Source: a virus
Taxonomy: Duplodnaviria; Heunggongvirae; Uroviricota; Caudoviricetes
Virus record (IMG/VR): IMGVR_UViG_2718218127_000003
Direction: 5' to 3' (one strand)
Length of the DNA stretch: 21,552 bases
Numbering within the stretch: position 1 is the first letter of the stretch; the number at the start of each line of letters is the position of its first letter. The translations under genes and the position numbers were made by a program. Below the pieces are notes generated by a model. That model was not told where the DNA came from and did not search any database. It saw only the letters and a program-made list of their open reading frames with translations. Below, piece after piece: positions 1,556 to 21,552 of the stretch.

Positions 1556-1617
1556 TGGCGGAGAGAGGGGGATTTGAACCCCCGGTAGAGTTGCCCCTAC
1601 TCCGGTTTTCGAGACCG
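1556..1617 (-). tRNA. Partial tRNA-Ser(CGA): 3' 62 nt only, from the anticodon stem through CCA; att remnant rather than a functional tRNA
   Basis: The minus strand reads CGGTCTCGAAAACCGGAGTAGGGGCAACTCTACCGGGGGTTCAAATCCCCCTCTCTCCGCCA, which is the anticodon arm (CGA), long variable arm, T arm, acceptor 3' strand and CCA of a serine tRNA. No D arm or 5' acceptor strand is present upstream. Confidence 0.7.
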
Positions 1618-2350
1618 ATGATACAGAGTCGAAAAATCAAAGAGTTAAAAATTTTTCTTGGAATAAATGTCTTAAAATCGTACACGAAAAATCAATGAAT
1701 TACATAACATTAAAGAAGAATATTCCAAGCCTTCTTGAGGCTACTACCTGTTTTCAGGTGTCATTCAGACGTGATTTGCCCCAGATTGGGAAAGCACGCT
1801 TTTTTCTCAGCTATCGTCCTCTTATTTTGCCGTTACATTTCTTTTTGCACTCTAATGATTAATTTACAATAATAATATCGGTAATTATTGAGTAATAATA
1901 AATTGATTATTGCAAATGTAATTTAATTCCATCTTCGCGTTATATTCCAATCTTTAATCTCCGCATGGAACAAGTTGCATGCGTGACTATATTAAGACAA
2001 CTTATAACCACCAAAACATTTGCTTTGCAAACAAAAACAGTGACCATTGACTCTAAGAAAATTCCGATCTATTGTTAGGGTCATCAAAGTTACTTAACAG
2101 TATTCCGAAATGAAAATACAAAGCAAGCTAATTGTCTTATTAAACATTATCATTGCATTTATATTATTTGAGCTTTTAGCTCAAAAATTTGGTTTGAGTA
2201 CATTATTTTAAAGCAAGATAAACAATATCGGGCACTCTAGTTTTTATAATTAACAATTAAACGTCCATAAAATGTTATTTACTTTTGTTCGCTATTGTCA
2301 CATCTTAATATAGTGGCTTACGCCACTCTACTTTCATCACATTTTGTACG

Positions 2351-2385
2351 TTTATGTACTCGCCATGAAGCTCTTTCATGGCGAT
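2351..2385 (+). terminator. Intrinsic terminator-like hairpin in the AT-rich spacer
   Basis: CGCCATGAA-gctct-TTCATGGCG (9-bp stem) followed by ATTTTTATTCTT. Confidence 0.4.
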
Positions 2386-2475
2386 TTTTATTCTTAATCC
2401 AAGAACATACTCCCTACCTATAGCAAAATCACTTTTTGAACAAAAGAATAACGTATTTAGGTAATCATTACGAAT

Positions 2476-3057
2476 TTACCCTATAGGTGCTACTGGCCAT
2501 TCAATATCCGGAGCAGTTGTTGTATTAACACGGTTCAGCAACACCCGATACTTTTTCCAGGCTTCCAGCAACGAGTTTTCTTCCTCCGTTGCGATTTCCA
2601 GATCTACAGCATCCTGAAGTGGCGCAATATGCTCATTCGCTGCCTGCATCAGGCTGTTTTTTGTTTCTTCCGCCTCCCGGATCCGGAATAGTTTTTCTGC
2701 TTCTGCATCTTTCACCCAGGCTGTGCCGTTCCACTTCTGAAACTCCCCTTCCGGGGATAACCAAGTGGCATTTTCCGGTAACGGACCGAGTTCAGAAATA
2801 AATAACGCGTCGCCGGAAGCCACGTCATAAACCGTTTTACCCCGATGATCTTCAACGAGATGCCACGATGCCTCATCACTGTTGAAAACAGCCACGAAGC
2901 CTGCCGGAATATCTGGCGGTGCAATATCGGTACTGTTTGCTGGCAGACCTGTATGAGGCGGAATATATGCGTCACCTTCACCAATAAATTCATTAGTTCC
3001 GGCCAGCAGATTATAAATTTTTATGGTCCGTGGTTGTTCACTCATTCTGAATGCCAT
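2476..3057 (-). CDS. Phage tail fiber assembly protein (Tfa)
   Basis: The N-terminus [54 protein letters not shown] is characteristic of lambdoid Tfa chaperones. The ATG overlaps the stop of the upstream stf fragment (TAATG). Confidence 0.85.
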
Positions 3058-3297
3058 TATGCAAGCCTCACAATATAGTTAAATGCGATGTTTTTGACGG
3101 TGTTTTCCGCGTTACCAGCAGCGTTAACGGTGATGGTATGTCCATGTGAACCAATCGCAACGGAGTGCGTATGAGCACCAATACCGACAGTATGTGCGTG
3201 TGCACCTGCGCTTGCAGCAGTACCCGATACAGAGTGCGTATGAGCGCCTGCAGAAGAAGTGTTAACACTGTATTTAGAATAATCAGGTGATCCACTT
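3057..3297 (-). pseudogene. Side tail fiber (stf) gene, 3'-terminal remnant of about 80 codons
   Basis: My own translation of an alternative minus-strand frame gives ...[79 protein letters not shown], the (G)AHTHSV-repeat C-terminus of lambdoid side tail fibers. There is no start codon; it is fused upstream to the nu1 fragment. Confidence 0.7.
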
Positions 3298-3625
3298 CCA
3301 CCACTTCAGCGGAGTCTCTGGCATTCTTCAGTTCCTGTGCGTCGGCCTGCGCACGCGTAAGTCGATGGCGTTCGTACTCAATAGTCCCTGGCTGGAGATC
3401 TGCCTCGCTGGCCTGGCGCAGTTCTTCAACCTCCCGGCGCAGCTTTTCGTTCTCAATTTCAGCATCCCTTTCGGCATACCATTTTATAACGGCGGCAGAG
3501 TCATAAAGCACCTCATTACCCTTGCCACCGCCTCGCAGAACGGGCATTCCCTGTTCCTGCCAGTTCTGAATGGTACGGATACTCGCACCGAAAATGTCAG
3601 CCAGCTGCTTTTTGTTGACTTCCAT
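3296..3625 (-). pseudogene. nu1: Terminase small subunit Nu1, N-terminal 110 codons only
   Basis: [110 protein letters not shown] matches lambda Nu1 as I recall it. After codon 110 the frame runs into out-of-frame stf sequence (the listed 185-aa ORF is a chimera). Confidence 0.85.
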
Positions 3626-3850
3626 TGTTCATTCCACGGCCAAAAACAGAGAAAGGAAACGACAGAGGCCCAAAAGCTCGTTTTCAGCACCTGTCGTTTC
3701 CTTTCTTTTCAGGGGGTATTTTAAATAAAAACATTAAGTTACAACGAAGAAGAACGGAAATGCCTTAAACCGGAAAATTTTCATAAATAGCGAAAACCCG
3801 CGAGGTCGCCGCCCCGTAACAGCCCGGATCGCCGGAAAGGACCCGTAAAT
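3626..3850 (-). other. Lambda-type cos site (cosQ-cosN-cosB); 12-nt cohesive end at 3803-3814
   Basis: The reverse complement of 3721-3814 reads GGGCGGCGACCTCGCGGGTTTTCGCTATTTATGAAAATTTTCCGGTTTAAGGC..., which is the lambda left-end/cos sequence. The flanking CGGAAAGGACCCGT matches the lambda right end. It sits directly upstream of nu1. Confidence 0.85.
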
Positions 3851-3968
3851 GAGATGCTTTGTTGTTTTCTTGTTGGCTGTTCAACTACATGCAAGCATAT
3901 GGCATAATATTTAATTGATAATCTAATAGTTATAAAAACTTGCCCCAAAACCTTAACGGAGACTAAGA

Positions 3969-4661
3969 ATGTCCAGAGAAGGAACGTTAGATTTATTGCA
4001 AGAAGTTGAAGAAACCGTTGAAATATTAAAAGATACGCAACAAATAAAACCAGTAAAGGTTAAATCAATACTTGAAAATTTAAGAAGCGCATTAGAATAC
4101 GTTGCGAATGATAGTTATGAAAAACATACCACTAACCAATCAACCCCTCGGCCAAAAATTTATTTCCCATACGGCGAGAAAAAATTTTTAGATGCTTTCT
4201 TTATTAAAAAATTAAACTGCCAGCAACCTGAATTATCTCCATTATATGCAGTTTTTGTTTCAATCCAAGACTATCAAACTGGTAATAACTGGCTTGGAAT
4301 GATGTGTAACCTCACGAACGAAGTAAAACATAGGAAACCAATCCCATTGAGTGAAGATAGTATTGTTCGAGGAATAGATGTTAATATCAATGGGTTTGGA
4401 TTAATTAAGACAGATGCTACATCAAAAATCATTTTCAGAGATAATTTCACCAATGGACAGAGAATTGAAGACTTCACCATTGAAAATGGTAAAGTTGAAA
4501 AATCAGGGAACGGAATCCCCATCAATATTAACATAACCGAAGAGAAAAAAATAAGATTCCACGGTACAGATTATGAGGTCATTCCTTTTGTAGAGTTATG
4601 TCTAAAAGAAATAAGAGATTTTGTTAATGAAGCATATGAAATTTTAGATGCCATTGAATAA
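3969..4661 (+). CDS. Hypothetical protein, 230 aa, no recognisable domain; gene at the bor position between Rz and cos
   Basis: ATG at 3969 is preceded by GGAG with 7-nt spacing. The gene is AT-rich relative to its neighbours and lies on the strand opposite the late genes. The product is hydrophilic with no signal peptide. Confidence 0.7.
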   Translation: MSREGTLDLLQEVEETVEILKDTQQIKPVKVKSILENLRSALEYVANDSYEKHTTNQSTPRPKIYFPYGEKKFLDAFFIKKLNCQQPELSPLYAVFVSIQDYQTGNNWLGMMCNLTNEVKHRKPIPLSEDSIVRGIDVNINGFGLIKTDATSKIIFRDNFTNGQRIEDFTIENGKVEKSGNGIPININITEEKKIRFHGTDYEVIPFVELCLKEIRDFVNEAYEILDAIE

Positions 4662-4756: not shown

Positions 4757-5260
4757 TCAATTGTAATTTGATGTCCTCACCGACTCATAAACGCGCTCAC
4801 ACGTCATTCCAGCCCGGTAGCTTTCGTCAGATCGCTCAGCATAATATCGAGCTTCTTCTGTAAGGCGGCCGAGCATGTCGGCGAGCACTGCGGCGTCGGC
4901 TCCGGCTGTTTTGCTTCTGACGGCAGCGGCAAGATCTGCGGTGTGCTTTGCGGCGTCCAGGCGGGCGGCAAGCTTTGTTGCTTCGGTGCGCAGCTGGTTA
5001 ACAGTGGCAGACAGGCCAGCAGCAGTGGCAGCAGATTTAGCTGCTTGTGCTTGTGCATCTTTTACAGCCTCATCACGGGCAATTATGCGCCCTTGTTCAA
5101 TCATGCGGGCTGCGGTCTGCGCGTTCGCTGTTTGCGATGATTCCGCGCTGTCACGTTCCGCCCACTTTTTTTCCCAACCGCGGCTACACCATATATTTCC
5201 AGCGATAAACGCACTGGTCACTAGTACCGCGGCAACAATAAGCTGGGAGCACAGGCTCAC
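4757..5260 (-). CDS. Rz-like i-spanin (inner-membrane spanin)
   Basis: N-terminal TM helix [23 protein letters not shown] followed by an Ala/Gln-rich coiled coil. The GTG start overlaps the endolysin stop (GTGA). Confidence 0.7.
4804..5058 (-). CDS. Rz1-like o-spanin lipoprotein, embedded in the +1 frame of Rz
   Basis: [23 protein letters not shown] has a lipobox (LTSC) and is followed by a Pro-rich segment. The gene lies entirely inside Rz, as in lambda Rz/Rz1. Confidence 0.65.
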
Positions 5261-5790
5261 TGGTCTATCCCCCAGCAGGTTAATGCACTCTCCTGGTCAC
5301 GACGAATAACCTGACCGTAACAATTATTTGAACGAATACGGCAATCACGTCCACCGTCCTTTATCCACCAGCGAATCGCCTCGCATGCGCCTTTACGATC
5401 ACCGGCATTAAGCCGCTTATAAAACGTCGACGGAAAACACTTACCAGGGCCAATGTTATAGGGACAGAATGACGCGATACCGGCTTTCTGTGGCTCGGTC
5501 AGTGGAACTTTTATATTGCGCTCCACCCATGCCAGCGCCTTATCCCGCTCAATGGCGTTAACCTGGGCGCATTTTTCCTTCGACAGTTTCATTCCCGGAA
5601 TAACAGGTTTACCGTCCACCATCGTTGCTCCCCGACAGATGGTCCATACGCCGGAGCCATCGCGGTATGCAGTGGTGTGATTCCCCTCTTTTTCATCAAG
5701 AAACTGATCGAGAATGTCAGGTGCAGGAGCACTGGCGGCAATCAGTGCCAGAACAGCAGCCGACAGGCTGTATCTGATTTTTACGTTCAT
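5257..5790 (-). CDS. Phage endolysin (GH24 lysozyme) with an N-terminal signal-anchor (SAR-type), RrrQ-like
   Basis: [56 protein letters not shown]... matches lambdoid lysozymes of the Qin/21 type. Confidence 0.85.
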
Positions 5791-5924
5791 GGATATTTAT
5801 CAGGATTTATCGGTTTCTGAACCCTGGATATGTTAAGCATTCAGCCCGTCAGTGGTAGGACACTGGCGCTCTGGTTAAGGATTATGGGGGATGCAGGCTG
5901 GGCTACCCCATCTGAGGATTTGAT

Positions 5925-6164
5925 ATGCAAAAAGAAGTTTTTATCAATATTACAGCTGACTGCTCATCTCCTGCATCAACAGCAAAAGAAATTGAAGCTC
6001 TTAAATATATGATTACAGTAATATTTACCGTATTGGACCAGAATGAAAAAAATGGAATCATTCATCAATTAAATGAACATGTAAATAATCCATATATCAA
6101 AAGCAATCTGGAAATGTTGCTACCAATGAAAGATATTGGAAAACCAACTGAAACAAAAGGCTAA
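5925..6164 (+). CDS. Small hypothetical protein (79 aa) inserted in the lysis cassette on the opposite strand
   Basis: ATG at 5925 is preceded by GAGGA with 6-nt spacing. The gene is AT-rich and has no recognisable family. Confidence 0.45.
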   Translation: MQKEVFINITADCSSPASTAKEIEALKYMITVIFTVLDQNEKNGIIHQLNEHVNNPYIKSNLEMLLPMKDIGKPTETKG

Positions 6165-6475
6165 CAACCCGTAATCGAGTTATCTGAACTGTTAATTTTT
6201 ATGGTATACCGCGCCTCTGAACAGGGGCGCGTTTCTGGCAACAGCTCGTCCCCTTCACATAACCCGGCAGCAACATCCAGGAAGACCTGTCTGATGCTCC
6301 TTCTGGCTGCTGCCTCATAAAACTCCAGCGCGGCACCTTCAACACGGTCCAGCGAGATGTCCAGGTCAAAAATTTCACCGTCAAAGCGTTTTTTGTCCCG
6401 TAACGCTAAAGTTACCGTAACTTTATTCTCAAAATTGCGGATCCCTTTCACAATCAGTTCATAGTTTTGAGTCAT
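6161..6475 (-). CDS. YdfR-like protein (DUF1327 family) of the Qin-type lysis cassette
   Basis: MTQNYELIVKGIRNFENKVTVTLALRDKKRFDGEIFDLDISLDRVEGAALEFYEAAARRS... ATG at 6473-6475 with GGGGAGAG upstream. It sits between holin and endolysin, as ydfR does between essQ and rrrQ. Confidence 0.7.
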   Translation of the reverse strand: MTQNYELIVKGIRNFENKVTVTLALRDKKRFDGEIFDLDISLDRVEGAALEFYEAAARRSIRQVFLDVAAGLCEGDELLPETRPCSEARYTIKINSSDNSITGC

Positions 6476-6479
6476 TGAA

Positions 6480-6695
6480 TTACTCTCCCCGTGCAGCCTT
6501 GCGCTTATCTTCTTTAATCTTGAAATAAAGGTTTGTCAGGTACGTCAGCAGGCCAAATACCAAGCTACCCAGCACACCTATTGCTGCCCACTGTGAGGGC
6601 GTGACTTTATCGAGCAGCTGTAAAAACCAGTAGCCAGCACTGCCTGCGGAGGTGCCGTAGGCAATGCCCGTTGTTAACTTATCCATGGATTTCAT
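6480..6695 (-). CDS. Class II holin, phage 21 S (pinholin)-like, with a dual-start motif
   Basis: [71 protein letters not shown], 71 aa, with Met1 and Met4 (antiholin/holin starts). Strong SD GGAGGTG. Confidence 0.85.
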
Positions 6696-6786
6696 AGCCT
6701 CACCTCCGCAAATAACGGATGGTGTACACGGTTCGGAACGAAGAGGAAAGGTATAGAAGTTACATTAGCGTAAGGCTTGAACATCT

Positions 6787-6821
6787 ATTCAAAAAGAAAA
6801 ACGCCAGCGATTATTCTGGCG
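6787..6821 (-). terminator. Intrinsic terminator downstream of the AraC-like gene and upstream of the holin
   Basis: On the minus strand: CGCCAG-aataatcg-CTGGCG followed by TTTTTCTTTTTG. Confidence 0.55.
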
Positions 6822-6888
6822 TAGCTGAAAGCATCATACAATTATCAAATACGAAAATTACAAAATCATTAAAACGCATCACGTTACA

Positions 6889-7614
6889 TCATGTCTTTTC
6901 TAAAAAAAATCTTGATGAATATTGATGGGGAGGAACACCAAAATATCTTCTGAAAACACTTACAAAATATGACGTGTTTTCATAACCGCATATCTCAGTA
7001 ACTTTTCCAACAGAATATAAATTGTAGCTTAATAACCTTTCCGCCATCACCATTCGCTCTTCAAGAATTAACTTACTAAATGATAAGCCTTCGTGCTTTA
7101 ATTTTCCTTTTAACAGACTTTCACTCAGATACAGTCTTGAAGATATATCACAAAGTCTCCATGCTGCAGATATATCCGTGTGAATAATAGCCTTAACTTT
7201 ACTTCCTAAACTATTAAGACATCCAAATAAAAAACTTTGCACTATTTTCTCTGAAGATAAGATAGCAAGACATGCAAGTGATATTTGATTTCTAACAAAA
7301 TCCACAGTTCTGCCATCACAATTCAAGCATGCAATCAAGTTCTTTAACAATGAAAAATCTTCACATTCCACCATCAAGTATGCCGGATAAAACCTTCTTA
7401 CAGAAAAAGGTGAGAGTGTGTTGCTTTTAAAGAAATCATTAACTGTTTTCTCTTCAACATCTACGATCATTGCATGATCTATATTTGATGAAAAAAAATC
7501 TTTTAAATTGTAATCAATGAGAACAGCACTTCCTTTTTTAAATAAAATATCTTCTTTACCAATTCGGACATCAAACGAGTTCAACACCAAAATGATAGAA
7601 CATATGTATGGCAT
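6889..7614 (-). CDS. AraC/XylS-family transcriptional regulator, AppY/EnvY-like (241 aa from the ATG); paralog of 228..971
   Basis: ...WRLCDISSRLYLSESLLKGKLKHEGLSFSKLILEERMVMAERLL...CGYENTSYFVSVFRRYFGVPPHQYS. ATG at 7612-7614 is preceded by AGGTGG. The gene and its 350-bp upstream region are AT-rich. Confidence 0.8.
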   Translation of the reverse strand: MPYICSIILVLNSFDVRIGKEDILFKKGSAVLIDYNLKDFFSSNIDHAMIVDVEEKTVNDFFKSNTLSPFSVRRFYPAYLMVECEDFSLLKNLIACLNCDGRTVDFVRNQISLACLAILSSEKIVQSFLFGCLNSLGSKVKAIIHTDISAAWRLCDISSRLYLSESLLKGKLKHEGLSFSKLILEERMVMAERLLSYNLYSVGKVTEICGYENTSYFVSVFRRYFGVPPHQYSSRFFLEKT

Positions 7615-7965
7615 ATTATCCACCTGATATCATTGGGGTTACACCAGGTAAGTATAGGTGGAAAATCAATATTCGCCAGTTCAACAATAAGGAAAATCTC
7701 ATTGCATCACAAGTATAAAATTATGTATTTAACTCACAAAGACAAATTATTAAACCAATCTGTTATATTATATATAGCTGCGTGGAATCATAATATTATA
7801 TATTTTGACTGGCATGTTTACCAACTTTAAGTTGCATCTCAATGGTTTCTTCAGCGTAAACAGAGTTTTTATACAAACTGACACTCTGGGTATCATAGTG
7901 TAGTTTTTACGATTGTAAATATCCTGCATGCAGGAACTCATCCTTTTGGATGATATCGCATACAA

Positions 7966-8925
7966 TTAATTTACCATCAGTCTTAGAGCCAGTTCGTCCG
8001 GATAGGGATCGAAGTAATTCTGTGTAAGCAAGTAATCATTAGGATACTCACCCAGATAATGCTTCAGCAGAGTCAACGGCGCAAGAAGAGGTAATGTGCC
8101 AGAACGATAGTTAAGTATAACCTCGCTCAACTCTTTACGCTGGCGTGTACTTAAGTAGTTACTAAAATACCCCTGTATATGCATCAGCACATTCGTGTGA
8201 TTTTTACGTGATGCAGGTTTTCTGAGAATCGCCATCAGCTTATCACGATACACCTCAAAGTATGATTCAAGGTCCGCCCACTCGTGTATTGCAGCCACAA
8301 ATGGTCCCATATCTTTATAGCCTGCCTGACTATGCGCCAACAACTGAAGCTTATAACGACTATGAAAAGCTAATAACTCTCTTCTTGATAATTTCTCCTT
8401 GTAAAGGTGATTGAGCTCATGCAAAGCAAAAACTCTTTCAACAAAATTCTCACGAAGCACTGGATCATGTAATCGCCCATCCTCTTCAACCGGTAGCCAG
8501 GAAAACTTTTCCATCAAAGTGCTCGTAAATAGTCCCACTCCATCTTTACGACCTCGATTACCATTTTCATCATAGACACGCACGCGCTCCATGCCACAGC
8601 TGGGAGATTTAGCACAAACCACAAACCCCGATACATCCTTTAATTTGTCCATATAAGAACGACTAAACTCTGTCATTCTCTCTGTCACATCCTCATTCTG
8701 GTCGTGGCTGAAACACATCCGAATATTTCCTTGCGTCGAGCGCACAAGACGTAGAGCAGGACGCGGAACTGGCAGCCCTATAGCCATTTCCGGACATACT
8801 GGTCTGAATGTTACCCATTCCACTAATTTGTCCATTAAAAAGTCAGCTCTTTTGTGACCACCATCAAAACGAACAGCAGAACCGGCCAGACAACCGCTGA
8901 TTCCAATCACAGGTTTTTTTATCAT
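7966..8925 (-). CDS. YbgA-family protein: N-terminal DUF523 (TudS-like, Cys-rich) fused to C-terminal DUF1722
   Basis: MIKKPVIGISGCLAGSAVRFDGGHK...PVCPEM...VVCAKSPSCGME carries the conserved cysteines and SPSCG motif of the DUF523/thiouracil-desulfidase family, with a helical C-terminal half. Strong SD GGGGGAGG. Confidence 0.75.
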   Translation of the reverse strand: MIKKPVIGISGCLAGSAVRFDGGHKRADFLMDKLVEWVTFRPVCPEMAIGLPVPRPALRLVRSTQGNIRMCFSHDQNEDVTERMTEFSRSYMDKLKDVSGFVVCAKSPSCGMERVRVYDENGNRGRKDGVGLFTSTLMEKFSWLPVEEDGRLHDPVLRENFVERVFALHELNHLYKEKLSRRELLAFHSRYKLQLLAHSQAGYKDMGPFVAAIHEWADLESYFEVYRDKLMAILRKPASRKNHTNVLMHIQGYFSNYLSTRQRKELSEVILNYRSGTLPLLAPLTLLKHYLGEYPNDYLLTQNYFDPYPDELALRLMVN

Positions 8926-9117
8926 ATCCTCCCCCTTGACTAATTCATTAACACATAAACTGTGTAGTGCACGGAATAAATTGCCTTTCTGGCGTCATCA
9001 CTGACAATTTTTCTGTTATGGACTATTCCTAATATAGTATGAAAGTTCTTTAAGTGATCGGTCGTAATCATCTATCTTTCATACTTACTCTCAACTATCA
9101 AAAGTACAGGATTTATT

Positions 9118-9642
9118 ATGAAGTTATGGCCTGTGTTGACTGGCATTGCACTCTCTTTCACTCTTATAGCATGTAAGGCCCCGACACCACCTAAAGGTGT
9201 GCAGCCGATTACAAATTTTGACGCCAACCGCTACCTCGGAAAGTGGTATGAAATAGCTCGCCTCGAGAACCGGTTCGAACGTGGTCTGGAACAGGTCAGC
9301 GCTACTTATGGAAAACGGAACGACGGAGGGATTCGTGTACTTAACCGTGGATACGATCCAACGAAAAATAAATGGAGCGAGAGCGAAGGTAAAGCATACT
9401 TTACTGGAGATACTAAAACTGCAGCGTTGAAGGTTTCGTTTTTTGGCCCCTTCTATGGTGGCTATAATGTAATCAAACTGGATGATGAGTATAAGTATGC
9501 TCTTGTCAGTGGTCCGAACAGAGAATACCTATGGATTCTGGCAAGGACCCCAACTATTCCAGATAAAGTAAAAGCAGACTATGTGCGAACCGCTCAAAAG
9601 TTGGGATTCAATGTCAATGAATTATTATGGGTTAAACAATAA
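9118..9642 (+). CDS. blc: Outer-membrane lipocalin lipoprotein, Blc family (paralog-like, prophage-borne)
   Basis: Lipoprotein signal MKLWPVLTGIALSFTLIAC, then ...NFDANRYLGKWYEIARLENRFERGLEQV...GKAYFTG...LKVSFFGPFYGGYNVI...YLWILARTP..., the bacterial lipocalin signature. Confidence 0.85.
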   Translation: MKLWPVLTGIALSFTLIACKAPTPPKGVQPITNFDANRYLGKWYEIARLENRFERGLEQVSATYGKRNDGGIRVLNRGYDPTKNKWSESEGKAYFTGDTKTAALKVSFFGPFYGGYNVIKLDDEYKYALVSGPNREYLWILARTPTIPDKVKADYVRTAQKLGFNVNELLWVKQ

Positions 9643-9667
9643 AATCCCTACCCGAAATAATACTTAT

Positions 9668-9697
9668 TAGAAAAAAACCAGCCTTTGGGGAGGCTGG
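9668..9697 (-). terminator. tR'-like intrinsic terminator about 100 nt downstream of Q
   Basis: On the minus strand: CCAGCCT-ccccaa-AGGCTGG followed by TTTTTTTCT. The position matches the lambda pR'-tR' unit on which Q acts. Confidence 0.55.
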
Positions 9698-9797
9698 CTA
9701 AATCAGGAAACAAGCTGTTATATGATAATAACTACGTTGCGATTCCAACATTTAAAATGTTAGACTAATGAGAATCAGACAGCAACTTTTCCTTTAA

Positions 9798-10175
9798 TTA
9801 TTTCGAACAATCAGCATCCATCTCCAATCGGAGATCCAACACCATCAGCATACCCTCCACTACGCCCTCAGCTTTCTGGAGCATCCTGCCAACCCAACAA
9901 TCAGATCGCCCATGCTTACGTGCAAGCGCCATAAAAGTCATGCCGCCGACATAATAGTCCACCAATAAATCGTGCAAATCGCTGTTGTTCTTTTTCAGAC
10001 GGGCCATGCACCCGCAAATGATCATCGCGTCATCGTCACAACATTGCGGGCGAGATTTTACTTTTGAAGGAATTAATCCCTTAAAACCGGCGGCAATGGA
10101 CGACCAGGTCACATCTTCATGATTATTAGCCGCCCATGCTCCCCAACGCTCCAGAACCATCTGAATATCACGCAT
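9798..10175 (-). CDS. Late-gene antitermination protein Q (phage 82/21 type, QuuD-like)
   Basis: [76 protein letters not shown]... The ATG at 10173-10175 is preceded by GGAG; the TTG 4 codons upstream used by the ORF track is less likely. Confidence 0.85.
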
Positions 10176-10192
10176 CAACTTTCTCCACAAAA

Positions 10193-11189: not shown

Positions 11190-11763
11190 TCAATGAACGG
11201 TATCGAGCAGCTTTAACAGCTCAGGGAATCGGGATTCGAAGAAATGCGGCTGCGTCTCGCGCGGATTTGCGGGACTGGTGATATTCTTGCCGAACATGCA
11301 GCCTTTCGCTGTCAGCGACCAGAATTTTTTGATGTTGTTAATCGCGGTACGGCTGTATCGTTCGCGCTGCTCGACGATCCCCAGCTTCACCATCTGGTGA
11401 TATGCCTGATTAGCTGTCAGGCGGATACCATACTGCTTCAGCAGTGCACTCAGTGACAGCGTGGGGCGGCTTGAGCCATCAGGCGCGTCAGCAGGAGCAT
11501 CAATGGCATAGCGCGGTGCCAGATTCGGTACCCTGGCGACGCGCCTTACGCGTTAACCAGCCTTCTGCTTCCAGCCGTGCGATAGCCGTCCTGACGGTAC
11601 TCATCCCCGCGCCAATCTGACGGGCAATAGTTTCAATTGATGGCCAGCACACACCTTCGTCATTACTGAAATCAGCCAGGCGGGCCATAATTGCCACGCT
11701 GGATAATTTCATGCCTGATGCAGCGCAACCATCCCATACATAGCCGGTTAATTTAGTGCTCAT
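11190..11763 (-). pseudogene. Helix-turn-helix phage protein (replication/regulatory-like), apparently frameshifted near 11500-11520
   Basis: The 87-aa ORF (MSTKLTGYVWDGC...RLEAEGWLTRKARRQG) stops at 11500, and protein-like sequence continues in another frame (RYAIDAPADAPDGSSRPTLSLSALLKQYGIRLTANQAYHQMVKLGIVEQ...) into the 67-aa ORF ending at 11190. Confidence 0.5.
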
Positions 11764-17146: not shown

Positions 17147-17475
17147 TGACCACTTTTACCGACAAAGAACTGATTAAAGAAATTAAAGAGCGTATCAGCA
17201 GCCTTGACGTGCGAGACGATATTGAGCGCCGTGCTTATGAAATCGCACTCCTATCTCTGGAAGTAGAACCAGATGAACGCGAAGCTTATGAATTATTCAT
17301 GGAAAAGCGTTTCGGTGACTTAGTAGATCGTCGGAGAGCAAAAAACGGCAATAACGAATACATGGCATGGGATATGACTCTCGGTTGGATCGTCTGGCAG
17401 CAACGAGCTGGTATCCATTTTTCAACAATGTCACTGAATCGCCACGGGTTTAACAGACACCTCAGAGTCATTTAA
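17146..17475 (+). CDS. YfdT-like prophage protein; the 3' end is probably altered by the IS insertion at about 17435
   Basis: ATG overlaps the upstream stop (TAATG), with SD GGAGG. The last ~14 codons are read from the IS terminal repeat. Confidence 0.6.
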   Translation: MTTFTDKELIKEIKERISSLDVRDDIERRAYEIALLSLEVEPDEREAYELFMEKRFGDLVDRRRAKNGNNEYMAWDMTLGWIVWQQRAGIHFSTMSLNRHGFNRHLRVI

Positions 17476-17497
17476 GATGGCTTAAAGAGAGGTGCCC

Positions 17498-17748
17498 ATG
17501 AGCGGTAAGCGTTATCCCGAAGAGTTTAAAACTGAAGCAGTCAAACAGGTTGTTGATCGCGGTTATTCTGTTGCCAGCGTTGCAACACGTCTCGATATCA
17601 CCACCCACAGCCTTTATGCCTGGATAAAGAAGTACGGTCCGGATTCTTCCACTAATAAAGAACAGTCAGATGCTCAGGCCGAGATCCGCCGTCTCCAGAA
17701 AGAGCTGAAACGGGTTACCGACGAACGGGACATATTAAAAAAAGCCGC
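17498..17748 (+). pseudogene. IS3-family OrfA (HTH), interrupted by IS30; the last 9 codons resume at 18972-18999
   Basis: MSGKRYPEEFKTEAVKQVVDRGYSVASVATRLDITTHSLYAWIKKYG...ILKKAA, then after IS30 AYFAKLSD*. Confidence 0.8.
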
Positions 17749-18969
17749 TGTAGATTCAATTGGTCAACGCAACAGTTATGTGAAAACATGGGGTTGCGGA
17801 GGTTTTTTGAATGAGACGAACATTTACAGCAGAGGAAAAAGCCTCTGTTTTTGAACTATGGAAGAACGGAACAGGCTTCAGTGAAATAGCGAATATCCTG
17901 GGTTCAAAACCCGGAACGATCTTCACTATGTTAAGGGATACTGGCGGCATAAAACCCCATGAGCGTAAGCGGGCTGTAGCTCACCTGACACTGTCTGAGC
18001 GCGAGGAGATACGAGCTGGTTTGTCAGCCAAAATGAGCATTCGTGCGATAGCTACTGCGCTGAATCGCAGTCCTTCGACGATCTCACGTGAAGTTCAGCG
18101 TAATCGGGGCAGACGCTATTACAAAGCTGTTGATGCTAATAACCGAGCCAACAGAATGGCGAAAAGGCCAAAACCGTGCTTACTGGATCAAAATTTACCA
18201 TTGCGAAAGCTTGTTCTGGAAAAGCTGGAGATGAAATGGTCTCCAGAGCAAATATCAGGATGGTTAAGGCGAACAAAACCACGTCAAAAAACGCTGCGAA
18301 TATCACCTGAGACAATTTATAAAACGCTGTACTTTCGTAGCCGTGAAGCGCTACACCACCTGAATATACAGCATCTGCGACGGTCGCATAGCCTTCGCCA
18401 TGGCAGGCGTCATACCCGCAAAGGCGAAAGAGGTACGATTAACATAGTGAACGGAACACCAATTCACGAACGTTCCCGAAATATCGATAACAGACGCTCT
18501 CTGGGGCATTGGGAGGGCGATTTAGTCTCAGGTACAAAAAACTCTCATATAGCCACACTTGTAGACCGAAAATCACGTTATACGATCATCCTTAGACTCA
18601 GGGGCAAAGATTCTGTCTCAGTAAATCAGGCTCTTACCGACAAATTCCTGAGTTTACCGTCAGAACTCAGAAAATCACTGACATGGGACAGAGGAATGGA
18701 ACTGGCCAGACATCTAGAATTTACTGTCAGCACCGGCGTTAAAGTTTACTTCTGCGATCCTCAGAGTCCTTGGCAGCGGGGAACAAATGAGAACACAAAT
18801 GGGCTAATTCGGCAGTACTTTCCTAAAAAGACATGTCTTGCCCAATATACTCAACATGAACTAGATCTGGTTGCTGCTCAGCTAAACAACAGACCGAGAA
18901 AGACACTGAAGTTCAAAACACCGAAAGAGATAATTGAAAGGGGTGTTGCATTGACAGATTGAATCTACA
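17749..18969 (+). mobile_element. IS30, complete (1221 bp) with a 2-bp GC target duplication
   Basis: Ends TGTAGATTCAATTGGTCAACGC... and ...GACAGATTGAATCTACA. GC is present on both flanks. Confidence 0.9.
17811..18962 (+). CDS. insI: IS30 transposase (383 aa)
   Basis: MRRTFTAEEKASVFELWKNGTGFSEIANILGSKPGTIFTMLRDTGG... through the DDE domain to the IS30 end. Confidence 0.9.
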   Translation: MRRTFTAEEKASVFELWKNGTGFSEIANILGSKPGTIFTMLRDTGGIKPHERKRAVAHLTLSEREEIRAGLSAKMSIRAIATALNRSPSTISREVQRNRGRRYYKAVDANNRANRMAKRPKPCLLDQNLPLRKLVLEKLEMKWSPEQISGWLRRTKPRQKTLRISPETIYKTLYFRSREALHHLNIQHLRRSHSLRHGRRHTRKGERGTINIVNGTPIHERSRNIDNRRSLGHWEGDLVSGTKNSHIATLVDRKSRYTIILRLRGKDSVSVNQALTDKFLSLPSELRKSLTWDRGMELARHLEFTVSTGVKVYFCDPQSPWQRGTNENTNGLIRQYFPKKTCLAQYTQHELDLVAAQLNNRPRKTLKFKTPKEIIERGVALTD

Positions 18970-19055
18970 GCGGCGTACTTCGCAAAGCTGTCCGACTGAG
19001 GTACGCCTTTATCCGTGACAACTCCTGTTGCTGGCCTGTTCGCCTGCTCTGTCGG

Positions 19056-19868
19056 GTGCTGGATGTTCATCCCAGTGGTTTTTACGCCTGGCTTCAGCAG
19101 CCGCATTCACAACGCCATCAGGCAGACCTGAGACTGACAGGACAGATTAAACAGTTCTGGCTGGAATCGGGATGCGTCTATGGTTATCGCAAAATCCATC
19201 TGGATTTGCGTGACAGCGGGCAACAGTGCGGAGTAAACAGAGTCTGGAGACTGATGAAACGTGTCGGAATAAAGGCTCAGGTCGGATACCGAAGCCCGCG
19301 GGCACGTAAAGGCGAGGCCAGTATCGTGTCACCCAACAGGCTCCAGCGACAGTTCAATCCGGATGCTCCTGATGAGCGTTGGGTAACGGACATAACCTAC
19401 ATCAGGACCCACGAAGGCTGGCTGTATCTTGCCGTTGTTGTTGATCTGTTCTCACGCAAAATTATCGGCTGGTCCATGCAATCCCGGATGACAAAGGACA
19501 TTGTCCTGAACGCACTGCTGATGGCTGTATGGCGGCGTAATCCCGAAAAACAGGTGCTGGTTCATTCGGATCAGGGCAGTCAGTACACAAGCCATGAGTG
19601 GCAGTCGTTCCTGAAATCACACGGCCTGGAGGGTAGCATGAGCCGTCGCGGTAACTGCCATGATAATGCGGTTGCAGAAAGTTTTTTCCAGTTGTTGAAA
19701 CGTGAACGGATAAAGAAAAAGATCTACGGAACGCGGGAAGAAGCCCGCAGTGATATTTTTGATTACATCGAAATGTTTTATAACAGTAAGCGTCGGCATG
19801 GTTCTAGCGAACAGATGTCACCGACAGAATATGAAAACCAGTATTATCAACGGCTCGGAAGTGTCTAG
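19056..19868 (+). CDS. IS3-family OrfB transposase (rve/DDE domain); the 5' part overlaps orfA and is normally reached by a -1 frameshift
   Basis: ...WVTDITYIRTHEGWLYLAVVVDLFSRKIIGWSM...LVHSDQGSQYTS...GNCHDNAVAESFF... Confidence 0.85.
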   Translation: MLDVHPSGFYAWLQQPHSQRHQADLRLTGQIKQFWLESGCVYGYRKIHLDLRDSGQQCGVNRVWRLMKRVGIKAQVGYRSPRARKGEASIVSPNRLQRQFNPDAPDERWVTDITYIRTHEGWLYLAVVVDLFSRKIIGWSMQSRMTKDIVLNALLMAVWRRNPEKQVLVHSDQGSQYTSHEWQSFLKSHGLEGSMSRRGNCHDNAVAESFFQLLKRERIKKKIYGTREEARSDIFDYIEMFYNSKRRHGSSEQMSPTEYENQYYQRLGSV

Positions 19869-19964
19869 ATTATCCGTGGCGATTCACTTCTCAGTGAGAA
19901 GGCCTTATTTGTATTGTTTCAAAAAATTACTAAAATGCAGTTTCGTTACGCAATTTTCTATAGA

Positions 19965-21221
19965 TTACTGATAGTCATCAGCAAGTCCGCTACTAAATAA
20001 CGTTTCTGCATTTTCAGCGGTAGCAACAGCATCCTGCACATCCTGCCGTTTCAAATCTAACACTCGTAATTTACCCTTTACTTCGGCGACAGATTCGATT
20101 CGCCTGTAAGCATCAGAATGATGTTCGGCATATAGCGCAAGTCCTTCCAGTTTGGGCAAAGCATCAGCCAGATGTAGGCTATGTGGATCTACCAGGTCCA
20201 CAACCATTTTGCCATCCTGTTCGGCAAAGAACAGGAAATCGGGACGAACAATCTTGTACTGTTCAGCTTCAACATAAGCGATTCCCAGTGACGACTGCCC
20301 TGTGTACTGTGGATTACGATACCAGAAAGCAAATCCTTCACGTTTGGTTTCGATCTCAAAAACCTTGGTTTCCCAATGGTTCAACAGAGCCGGATAGTTC
20401 CCGCTTTCGTCACACAACAAATGGTGTTTCCAGACTGGAAGGTCAGCTTCCTTTTCACCTTCACGCACCCTGGTCATTTCAAACTTGTTCGCCGGCCTGA
20501 CCAGATCCACATCCTGCGGTTCGGTACTCATTTCGACGATTTGACGATAGGCCTCTTTACGCTCATCTTTCAACGACTTGATTTGCGGTGTGTACTCGGC
20601 CAGCCACGCCTTCGCCAGTCTATCGGCCTCGCCATCGAAGTAATCCTGCACCTCCATCACCAGCCCCATGCCAGCAACGGTAACACGAGCCTCCATGATT
20701 GCTTCCAGATATTCCTCTGCATCCTCTTCTCGATCCGCAACCTTATCGGCCAGATATTCGACATAGGTACGTGAAACATCCGGGCTGAAAATTCGGGCTG
20801 CACGCCGGTAGGCGTCATCAATCACCGTTACGTCCGCCTCCTCCCAGAATTCGTTGAAGGTCATTGCTTTGTTCTTGAGGCTGGCAACCACAGCCTTACC
20901 ATCTACGACGAGCACTGCATTGCGTTTGTTTTTGATTTTCTCGGCATTTTCTATCTGGAACTTGTCCAGAACAGCGTGCAAAGCAGCATGGGCTTTCCTG
21001 ACTGCCCCATCAAGAATACCGTCATCAACCAGTTCCTGTGCCAGCGCGGTCAGACGTCTGGCGGGTCTGGCTCCTTTCTGTGGTCGGGTTTGCGAAGGTA
21101 GCGCTTCAAATGCTTCCCATACTTCAGCTGAAGCAGCCGGGTTAGGTTTCATCTCCACAGGGTTAACCAGGATGCGTCCGCTTGGAGGAGAGGTATCATC
21201 GCCCTTAAACAAGGTATTGAC
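19965..21221 (-). pseudogene. 3' portion (at least 415 codons) of a large gene of unknown function; the 5' part is separated or removed by the IS1 insertion
   Basis: The reading frame is open right up to the IS1 left inverted repeat at 21222, where the only in-frame stop lies inside IS1. The first codon in the ORF track is TTG, with no credible start. The C-terminal region ...YKIVRPDFLFFAEQDGKMVVDLVDPHS... is faintly nuclease-like. Confidence 0.55.
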
Positions 21222-21552
21222 GGTGATGCTGCCAACTTACTGATTTAGTGTATGATGGTGTTTTTGAGGTGCTCCAGTGGCTTCTGTTTCTATCAGCTGT
21301 CCCTCCTGTTCAGCTACTGACGGGGTGGTGCGTAACGGCAAAAGCACTGCCGGACATCAGCGCTATCTCTGCTCTCACTGCCGTAAAACATGGCAACTGC
21401 AGTTCACTTACACCGCTTCTCAACCCGGTACGCACCAGAAAATCATTGATATGGACATGAATGGCGTTGGATGCCGGGCAACCGCCCGCATTATGGGCGT
21501 TGGCCTCAACACGATTTTCCGCCATTTAAAAAACTCAGGCCGCAGTCGGTAA
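21222..21552 (+). mobile_element. IS1, left end and insA; truncated by the window edge
   Basis: Left inverted repeat GGTGATGCTGCCAACTTACTGATTTAGTGTATGATGGTG begins at 21222. Confidence 0.85.
21277..21552 (+). CDS. insA: IS1 InsA (91 aa)
   Basis: [59 protein letters not shown]..., with a GTG start as in IS1. Confidence 0.9.

Follow-up and report, generated by a model that had tools for sequence, protein, structure and literature searches.

The 21,552-nucleotide (nt) stretch of DNA studied here (IMG/VR record IMGVR_UViG_2718218127_000003; "the window" below, at its full length) contains a lambda-like prophage in which nu1, the gene for the terminase small subunit, breaks off after 110 codons and continues directly into the last 80 codons of stf, the side-tail-fiber gene. 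We conclude with high confidence that a deletion has left an inert scar here, in a cryptic lambda-like prophage at thrW/pao of the Escherichia coli chromosome. The scar is a product of ordinary prophage decay, of the same kind as in the DLP12 and Qin remnants of strain K-12, and it has already been annotated.

We propose that a RecA-independent illegitimate join at the tetranucleotide GGAA, presumably made by end-joining or by slippage at the short homology, fused nt 330 of nu1 to codon 583 of stf. This join would have removed the remainder of nu1, the terminase large-subunit gene A, the portal gene, the head and tail genes, J, lom, and about 88% of stf, a loss of about 22 kb from a complete precursor, or of about 2.2 kb from one that had undergone a nu1-stf deletion before. 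Two pseudogene fragments, called nu1' and stf' here, are left, with the Nu1 frame reading out of frame through stf' as an open reading frame (ORF) of 185 codons; cos, the antiterminator gene Q, the lysis cassette, and the tail-fiber assembly gene tfa have survived.

Results

The nu1-stf junction

All features of the scar (cos, nu1', stf', and tfa) lie on the minus strand of the window, and their coordinates are collected in Table 1. On the nu1 side, window positions 3296 to 3814 are 97.9% identical to lambda 520 to 1. Because nu1 starts at lambda position 191, exactly 330 nt, or 110 codons, are retained, the very length that an initial annotation made from the sequence had called lambda-like. 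Residues 1 to 98 of the predicted protein are identical to the lambda chain in PDB entry 6HN7 and residues 1 to 68 to that in PDB entry 1J9I, and the fragment scores 232.9 bits against the Pfam family Phage_Nu1 (PF07471; cutoff, 30). The N-terminal winged helix-turn-helix (HTH) domain that binds cosB (residues 1 to 68) is complete in nu1', and the cos region in front of it is intact, with a cosQ-like stretch immediately upstream. Codons 111 to 181 are gone: homology to the nu1 genes of lambda and of the complete prophages of E. coli TK3889 and EC9952 ends at codon 110, within the Pfam domain. In lambda, the C-terminal part of Nu1 (residues 111 to 181) binds the large subunit, gpA. Its gene, A, expected just 3' of nu1, was not found among the ORFs scanned across the window.

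On the other side of the join, stf' is read in the −1 frame relative to nu1' and matches, from base 3299 down, the 3' end of an stf pseudogene in E. coli NCTC11023 at 100% identity. Its translation carries C-terminal repeats of the GAHTHS type and the conserved C-terminal end of the side tail fiber; it matches tail-fiber PHROGs at their C-terminal ends, as well as the Pfam Phage_fiber repeat. The breakpoint corresponds to codon 583 of the 662-codon stf of a close relative (LR536431), so that about 88% of the gene has been lost, including the start codon and the N-terminal tail-attachment domain. The 80 remaining codons plus stop, against 662 to 1131 codons in relatives, agree with the out-of-frame C terminus of about 80 codons that had been recognized before.

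The stf' frame is closed by a TGA that lies five codons upstream of the join, and translation of this stretch of the window revealed no ATG, GTG, or TTG start in that frame except a GTG four codons before the stop. Without a usable start and with the TGA upstream, stf' is untranslatable on its own. These observations bear on whether the window might instead hold two small genes that are both intact, one for a naturally short Nu1-like protein and after it a fiber-like one with its own start, which the initial annotation had named as the arrangement that would speak against a fusion. The 82-residue family phrog_36248 matches stf' from end to end, which indicates that such fragments are called as genes in some phage records. 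However, besides the missing start and the upstream stop codon, the Nu1 frame passes through stf' out of frame, every comparison shows nu1 homology breaking off within the Pfam domain, at codon 110, the stf homology of NCTC11023 runs 1.6 kb further upstream from the exact base at which that of the window stops, and RefSeq marks both pieces as partial. The probability of two intact genes is therefore vanishingly small. We also considered a programmed −1 frameshift from Nu1 into the stf frame and rejected it, as no slippery heptamer follows the in-frame stop when the junction is read by eye.

The join was mapped by reading both parents through it, using nu1 of TK3889 and FORC064 and stf of NCTC11023. 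The nu1 parent reads ...GTGGTGGAA before and ACCGCATTC after the join (TK3889, FORC064, and lambda), and the stf parent reads ...GCTCCGGGAA before and GTGGATCACC after it (NCTC11023). The two overlap in GGAA only; an overlap of at least 4 nt arises by chance in about 1.6% of random joins (P = 0.016). The initial annotation had suspected a GAAGTGG-like microhomology. This motif is present on both parental sides but out of register, the product reading GAAGTGGTGGAAGTGG, and hence it is not the crossover point. The GGAA overlap fits microhomology-assisted illegitimate joining, by which deletions are known to form in E. coli.

The 30-nt string spanning the junction is present in the genome of E. 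coli MB06022 and in all eight of the independently assembled public contigs that we read, and the junction is therefore an inherited allele of a lineage and not an assembly error. Contigs with the string mostly have the same flanking genes wherever the flank is long enough. By exact-protein look-up, the 185-residue chimeric ORF occurs on at least 21 public contigs (NCBI, ENA, JGI, and Logan assemblies); among 5426 complete E. coli genomes, only MB06022 has the junction. Pattern scans for the 30-nt string gave no match in one genome-contig and one metagenome-contig collection, which reflects the content of these collections rather than absence; a JGI metagenome contig from the exact-protein look-up holds the string (at its position 3278) despite the zero-match metagenome scan. 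In MB06022, RefSeq/PGAP annotates both sides of the junction as partial pseudogenes, the nu1 side being a DNA-packaging protein "missing C-terminus" and the stf side a tail fiber protein "missing N-terminus."

Table 1 Positions of the junction and of the surviving parts of the element within the window
Feature	Position	Strand	Description
Deletion junction	3296..3299	−	4-nt microhomology GGAA (TTCC on the + strand), common to nu1 and stf parents
nu1' fragment	3296..3625	−	First 110 codons of lambda-type terminase small subunit; lambda 191-520
stf' fragment	3057..3299	−	Last 80 codons plus stop of side-tail-fiber gene; GAHTHS repeats
Chimeric 185-codon ORF	3068..3625	−	Nu1 1-110 plus 75 residues out of frame through stf'
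tfa	2476..3057	−	Intact tail-fiber assembly gene, 193 codons
Non-coding prophage DNA downstream of tfa	1899..2475	−	Collinear with complete relatives
Lambda-type cos region	3626..3830	−	Base-by-base alignment to lambda 48468-48502 plus 1-190
cosN	3814..3803	−	12-nt cohesive-end sequence GGGCGGCGACCT
cosB	~3765..3646	−	With R-site inverted repeat; inverted repeat I1 at 3650-3706
230-codon AT-rich ORF	3969-4661	+	Between Rz and cos; matches phrog_13652 (function unknown) only
Late-control and lysis block	4757..10190	−	Upstream of cos; from Pfam, ORFs, and MB06022 RefSeq annotation
Rz/DUF2514	5260..4757	−	Embedded 84-codon ORF at 5058..4804
Endolysin	5790..5257	−	
DUF1327	6475..6161	−	
Holin	6695..6480	−	P21-type
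Q	10190..9798	−	
Insertion sequence region	17492-21552		IS3-family element split by IS30 insertion (17811-18962), then 415-codon ORF, then IS1
415-codon ORF	19965-21212	−	No family match
IS1 end	21222 onward		

Extent of the loss

Alignment to complete lambdoid genomes, which the initial annotation had suggested, mapped the breakpoint against lambda and the prophages of TK3889 and EC9952. With lambda as the reference, positions 521 to about 21730 are missing (~21.2 kb); homology to the TK3889 prophage ends at nt 330 of nu1 and resumes in the last part of stf (~21.96 kb); and about 22.4 kb of the EC9952 prophage lies between the two breakpoints. All three sizes are approximate, as stf varies over a short stretch across which the endpoints on its side had to be extrapolated, without gaps. 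The gene order of EC9952 is nu1-A-W-B-C-D-E-FI-FII-Z-U-V-G-T-H-M-L-K-I-J-lom-stf-tfa, and tfa is the only head or tail gene that emerged from the ORFs scanned across the window. The terminase large subunit, the portal, and the head and tail genes are thus absent, as had been claimed. Lacking terminase, portal, capsid, and tail genes, the element is predicted to be unable to package DNA or to assemble particles, and from its gene content we would expect no particle production upon induction.

The EC9952 prophage (NZ_CP104595) shares with the window the thrW/pao site, the flank at the right end (AraC, an insertion sequence [IS] remnant, LysR', and paoD), and an early left arm that is 99.84% identical, but it is a complete 43-kb prophage that has kept int and xis. 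The TK3889 prophage (NZ_AP045036) has the same module of lysis genes, 230-codon ORF, cos, and nu1 (99.1% identical) but sits at ydfJ. Unlike the window, both have kept all 21 genes from A to stf; their stf genes differ from that of the window over the 56 to 90 nt just 3' of the breakpoint, and in the lysis and cargo modules they are mosaic with respect to it.

Downstream of the junction, tfa is intact, as had been noted. It covers positions 1 to 130 of the 131-position Pfam model Caudo_TAP (PF02413; E = 6.2e-43), matches phrog_105 (1.6e-98), and its region is 92% identical in DNA to lambda 21824-22535; its ATG overlaps the stf stop codon (TAATG). The similarity to complete prophages extends beyond tfa (window 3243-1899 versus TK3889 prophage 24264-25610, 97.0%; window 2022-3209 versus EC9952 prophage 1-1189, 99.4%). 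The non-coding DNA downstream of tfa has kept its collinearity with complete relatives and so belongs to the same surviving right arm.

Upstream of cos, the late-control and lysis genes remain, and the earlier statement that the element keeps Q, lysis genes, and cos was correct (Q, holin, endolysin, Rz, and cos are all present). The element therefore has the composition of a cryptic lambdoid prophage of the DLP12/Qin type, with Q, lysis genes, and cos present and everything from A to stf absent relative to EC9952, TK3889, and lambda.

A sister allele and the number of steps

E. coli NCTC11023 (NZ_LS483297) carries a second allele of the scar. It has the element at the same locus, with DNA that is 100% identical at window positions 2300 to 3299 and 3554 to 4000, but there codon 24 of nu1 meets codon 57 of stf, and the overlap is 2 nt (AA). 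Relative to the window it has 254 nt less of nu1 (window 3300 to 3553) and 1576 nt more of stf, its junction (5876/5877 of its stretch) matching window 3299/3554. Neither allele can be converted into the other by deletion. At least two deletion events must therefore have occurred in this lineage, and the common ancestor had at least 110 codons of nu1 and at least 606 codons of stf. This ancestor could have been a complete prophage like that of EC9952 or an already deleted form like the Qin variant of LR536431.

In the second case, an older nu1-stf deletion would have removed the structural block, a later deletion of about 2.2 kb would have erased this first scar in the window lineage, and NCTC11023 would have arisen from the same precursor by an independent deletion of about 0.86 kb. 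Such a history would refine the account of the scar and not turn it into a different object. A precursor of the LR536431 type (nu1 to codon 148, 317 nt, and a whole stf) yields both alleles, by deletions of 2181 nt and 857 nt, and the stf-tfa 5' DNA of the window and NCTC11023 shows only four differences from the LR536431 variant upstream of window position 2768. Moreover, the flanks of the NCTC11023 allele are 100% identical to the window and yet its endpoints in nu1 and stf are different, and it would be a coincidence for near-identical strains to have lost about 20 kb twice, independently and each time from nu1 into stf. On the other hand, we found no genome that has the intermediate arrangement at thrW/pao, the LR536431 variant being at the Qin (ydfJ) locus, and a complete prophage exists at thrW/pao in EC9952, which makes a complete ancestor possible too. 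We regard two successive deletions as a plausible history to which we give slightly less than an even chance. Repair by recombination at the scar was considered separately and discarded: the stf breakpoint of the window does not coincide with a change in divergence between NCTC11023 and LR536431, whose mismatches cluster far off, in the 3' half of tfa (window 2484-2768).

Similar deletions in other prophages

E. coli prophages show at least seven distinct deletion junctions that keep cos, the 5' end of nu1, and tfa and remove the block from A to J. Five of them join nu1 itself to stf, namely, those of the window, NCTC11023, BR1220, the LR536431 Qin variant (junction region at 6052-6813 of its stretch), and K-12 Qin. 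In BR1220, the prophage lies in the lambda attachment region and nu1 is joined at about codon 120 to the N-terminal part of stf (~10510 of its stretch). The other two are those of the Qin prophage of FORC064, which has a fragment of J between nu1 and stf (nohA-J'-stf'; 3329-3724 of its stretch), and of DLP12, described below. FCI55 contributes further independent junctions, A'-C' and FII-stf'. In 463 of the 5426 complete genomes, many of which, judged by their gene names, probably carry a vertically inherited Qin, no more than about 1.25 kb separates the 5' end of nu1 from the 3' end of stf with tfa.

Qin of K-12 (nohA-stfQ-tfaQ-pinQ; junction at 5799-5848 of the retrieved stretch) is built like the window element, with a lysis cassette (of the essQ-ydfR-rrrQ-rzpQ type), cos, a nu1 homologue, a truncated stf, and tfa. 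Here too the whole A-to-J block has been deleted, lambda 1-719 (cos and nohA) being joined inside stf and followed by tfaQ; identity to the window is 97.8% in cos-nu1 and 94.4% in stf'-tfa. In contrast to the 110 plus 80 codons of the window, Qin retains Nu1 to about residue 176 and 320 codons of stf, in an annotated ORF, and it sits at ydfJ together with pinQ, whereas the window element sits at thrW/pao without an invertase. DLP12 of K-12 (nohD-aaaD'-tfaD-...-appY; junction at 6355-6663 of the retrieved stretch) has likewise kept cos, a nu1 homologue, and a copy of tfa that is followed by a regulator of the AraC family (appY; in the window, a YdeO/GadX-like gene at 228-980), and has lost about 21 kb of structural genes. 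Its nu1 is complete, the 5' end of A (lambda 1018) being joined into tfa (lambda ~22119), and its chromosomal site is different.

The presence of pinQ directly after tfaQ in related Qin prophages raises the question of whether an invertase of the Pin/Gin type made the join by site-specific inversion or recombination. Invertible segments adjoin stf and tfa in e14, Mu, and P1, and pinQ in Qin, and such systems recombine inside tail-fiber genes. Yet the window has no recombinase gene close to tfa and no inverted repeats on either side of the region, and one partner of the join is nu1 and not a tail-fiber segment. The sole match to a crossover core, at 20360, is far off and at chance level, in what is a weak test. 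An invertase origin is hardly credible, and we retain illegitimate joining as the explanation.

The recurrent retention of the same parts could also mean that the remnant is a functional module. In particular, the Nu1 DNA-binding domain together with cos could block the packaging of an incoming lambda-like phage as a cosB decoy, cos could allow a helper phage to package the element, or tfa could be kept as a usable tail-fiber chaperone. The winged HTH domain is complete and identical to that of lambda, cos is intact, all of the seven or more junctions retain cos, the nu1 5' end, and tfa, and the corresponding arrangement is found in the 463 genomes mentioned above. In addition, the HTH domain gives a weak match to a defense model (residues 1 to 55, window 3461-3625, against PADLOC "mad1" [mads_1]; E = 1.4e-11). 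A survey of incomplete prophages reports that packaging and structural genes are preferentially lost and tail-fiber genes enriched (PMC7744054), and a second study describes an stf chimera, formed by inversion in the cryptic prophage e14 of K-12, that blocks adsorption of phage T2 (PMC12529663). Unlike in e14, the window has no invertase and its stf piece is untranslatable. Furthermore, the length of nu1 that is kept varies from 24 to 181 codons, and the 24 codons of NCTC11023 destroy the DNA-binding domain; the 75 C-terminal residues of the chimera are frameshifted tail-fiber DNA; there is no sequence variation with which to test selection; the count of 463 genomes is probably inflated by vertically inherited Qin; and the "mad1" match probably reflects generic HTH similarity rather than a role in defense. 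The element, at about 17 to 19 kb, is also far below the lambda packaging size. Taken together, we consider a retained function of this kind very unlikely and maintain that the remnant is an inert scar.

Other lesions and cargo of the element

The scar is not the only lesion. The element still has a CI-like S24 repressor gene and Cro/CII-like genes. Compared with EC9952, the replication/nin region has lost a further ~2.4 kb (33251-35642 of the EC9952 stretch) in a second deletion, at window 11523-11530, where the flanking alignments overlap by 8 nt. A KilA-N gene is missing its 5' part and a replication-type HTH gene most of its length, and RusA, a LexA-like gene, and yfdN are gone; MB06022 shows this deletion as two partial genes. 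Prophage homology stops at 17434, and IS elements and an ORF occupy the place of the xis, int, and tRNA-Thr (thrW) genes of EC9952. No integrase was found there, the IS3 and IS30 elements taking its place. The window thus has a cos site and no integrase, and its gene content is collinear with a full lambdoid prophage, which is not the makeup of a cos satellite resembling a phage-inducible chromosomal island, where a small island would bring an integrase, a regulator, and replication genes of its own. Because the replication/nin deletion and the replaced xis-int-thrW end add to the defects of the element, it is uncertain whether induction would lead to lysis; the earlier prediction of lysis without particles is reasonable only with respect to particles.

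Cargo genes (lipocalin, YbgA, and an AraC-like regulator) are interspersed with the lysis block. The DNA of the 230-codon ORF between Rz and cos is present in 4 of the 5426 complete genomes, and two of these four carriers (TK3889 and ETEC1738) have it in prophages with a complete block from A to the tape measure gene. Its position is a cargo slot, possibly for defense or moron genes: EC9952 and FCI55 have a "beta family protein" and an "sce7726 family protein" between Rz and cos, and DLP12 has bor/ybcV/ybcW/ylcI. Searches with NCBIfam and PADLOC returned nothing useful for the 230- and 415-residue products.

Several further observations concern individual genes. An Rfam match to IS009 (RF02111; 212 bits, above the gathering score) at window 2516-2714 on the minus strand lies wholly inside the 3' half of tfa, in the stretch where tfa differs most from the LR536431 copy. 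The two AraC-family regulators, at 228-980 and 6889-7623, both on the minus strand, are paralogous, with YdeO and GadX as their best NCBIfam matches; the former occupies at the right end of the prophage the position of appY in DLP12, and the latter lies between Q and holin, beside the YbgA and lipocalin cargo. Finally, window positions 1556 to 1615 on the minus strand resemble the 3' half of a tRNA-Ser gene, which may be serU. ARAGORN detected no complete tRNA there, and the best Rfam match was a plastid element antisense to trnS. The fragment is possibly an old attachment-site duplicate left by another integrated element.

Discussion

Nothing that we found contradicts the interpretation as a scar itself. 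The following observations weigh on it or on its simplest version. The 75 out-of-frame codons of the chimeric ORF are all open, which we estimate to be a chance event of about 3% under uniform codon usage. The ORF stays open to near tfa, its stop lying 8 nt before the tfa ATG, and this could hint at translation that has been kept through to tfa. All copies found share one sequence across the junction, so that they speak neither for nor against selection on the chimeric ORF. The different junction of NCTC11023 between identical flanks weakens a scenario with a single deletion step. We still regard the chimeric ORF as presumably without function.

Why, then, does the combination of cos and nu1' next to stf' and tfa survive so often? 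The survival could be neutral, with the deletions bounded by useful flanking genes, and a retained function is less likely. That it is a selected module acting against cos phages or exploited via them, with Tfa expressed by translation through the chimera, appears highly improbable to us.

The scar is of little importance except for correct annotation. Its two pieces ought to be labeled as pseudogene fragments left by one deletion and not as a 185-residue "DNA-packaging protein," and the element, to judge by its genes, would best be scored as a non-inducible prophage remnant that makes no particles. The junction is a clean lineage marker, and the window, NCTC11023, and EC9952 together provide a small worked example of the stepwise erosion of a prophage at one chromosomal site. 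The sole non-trivial residue is the recurrent survival of cos-nu1' beside stf'/tfa across many independent deletions.

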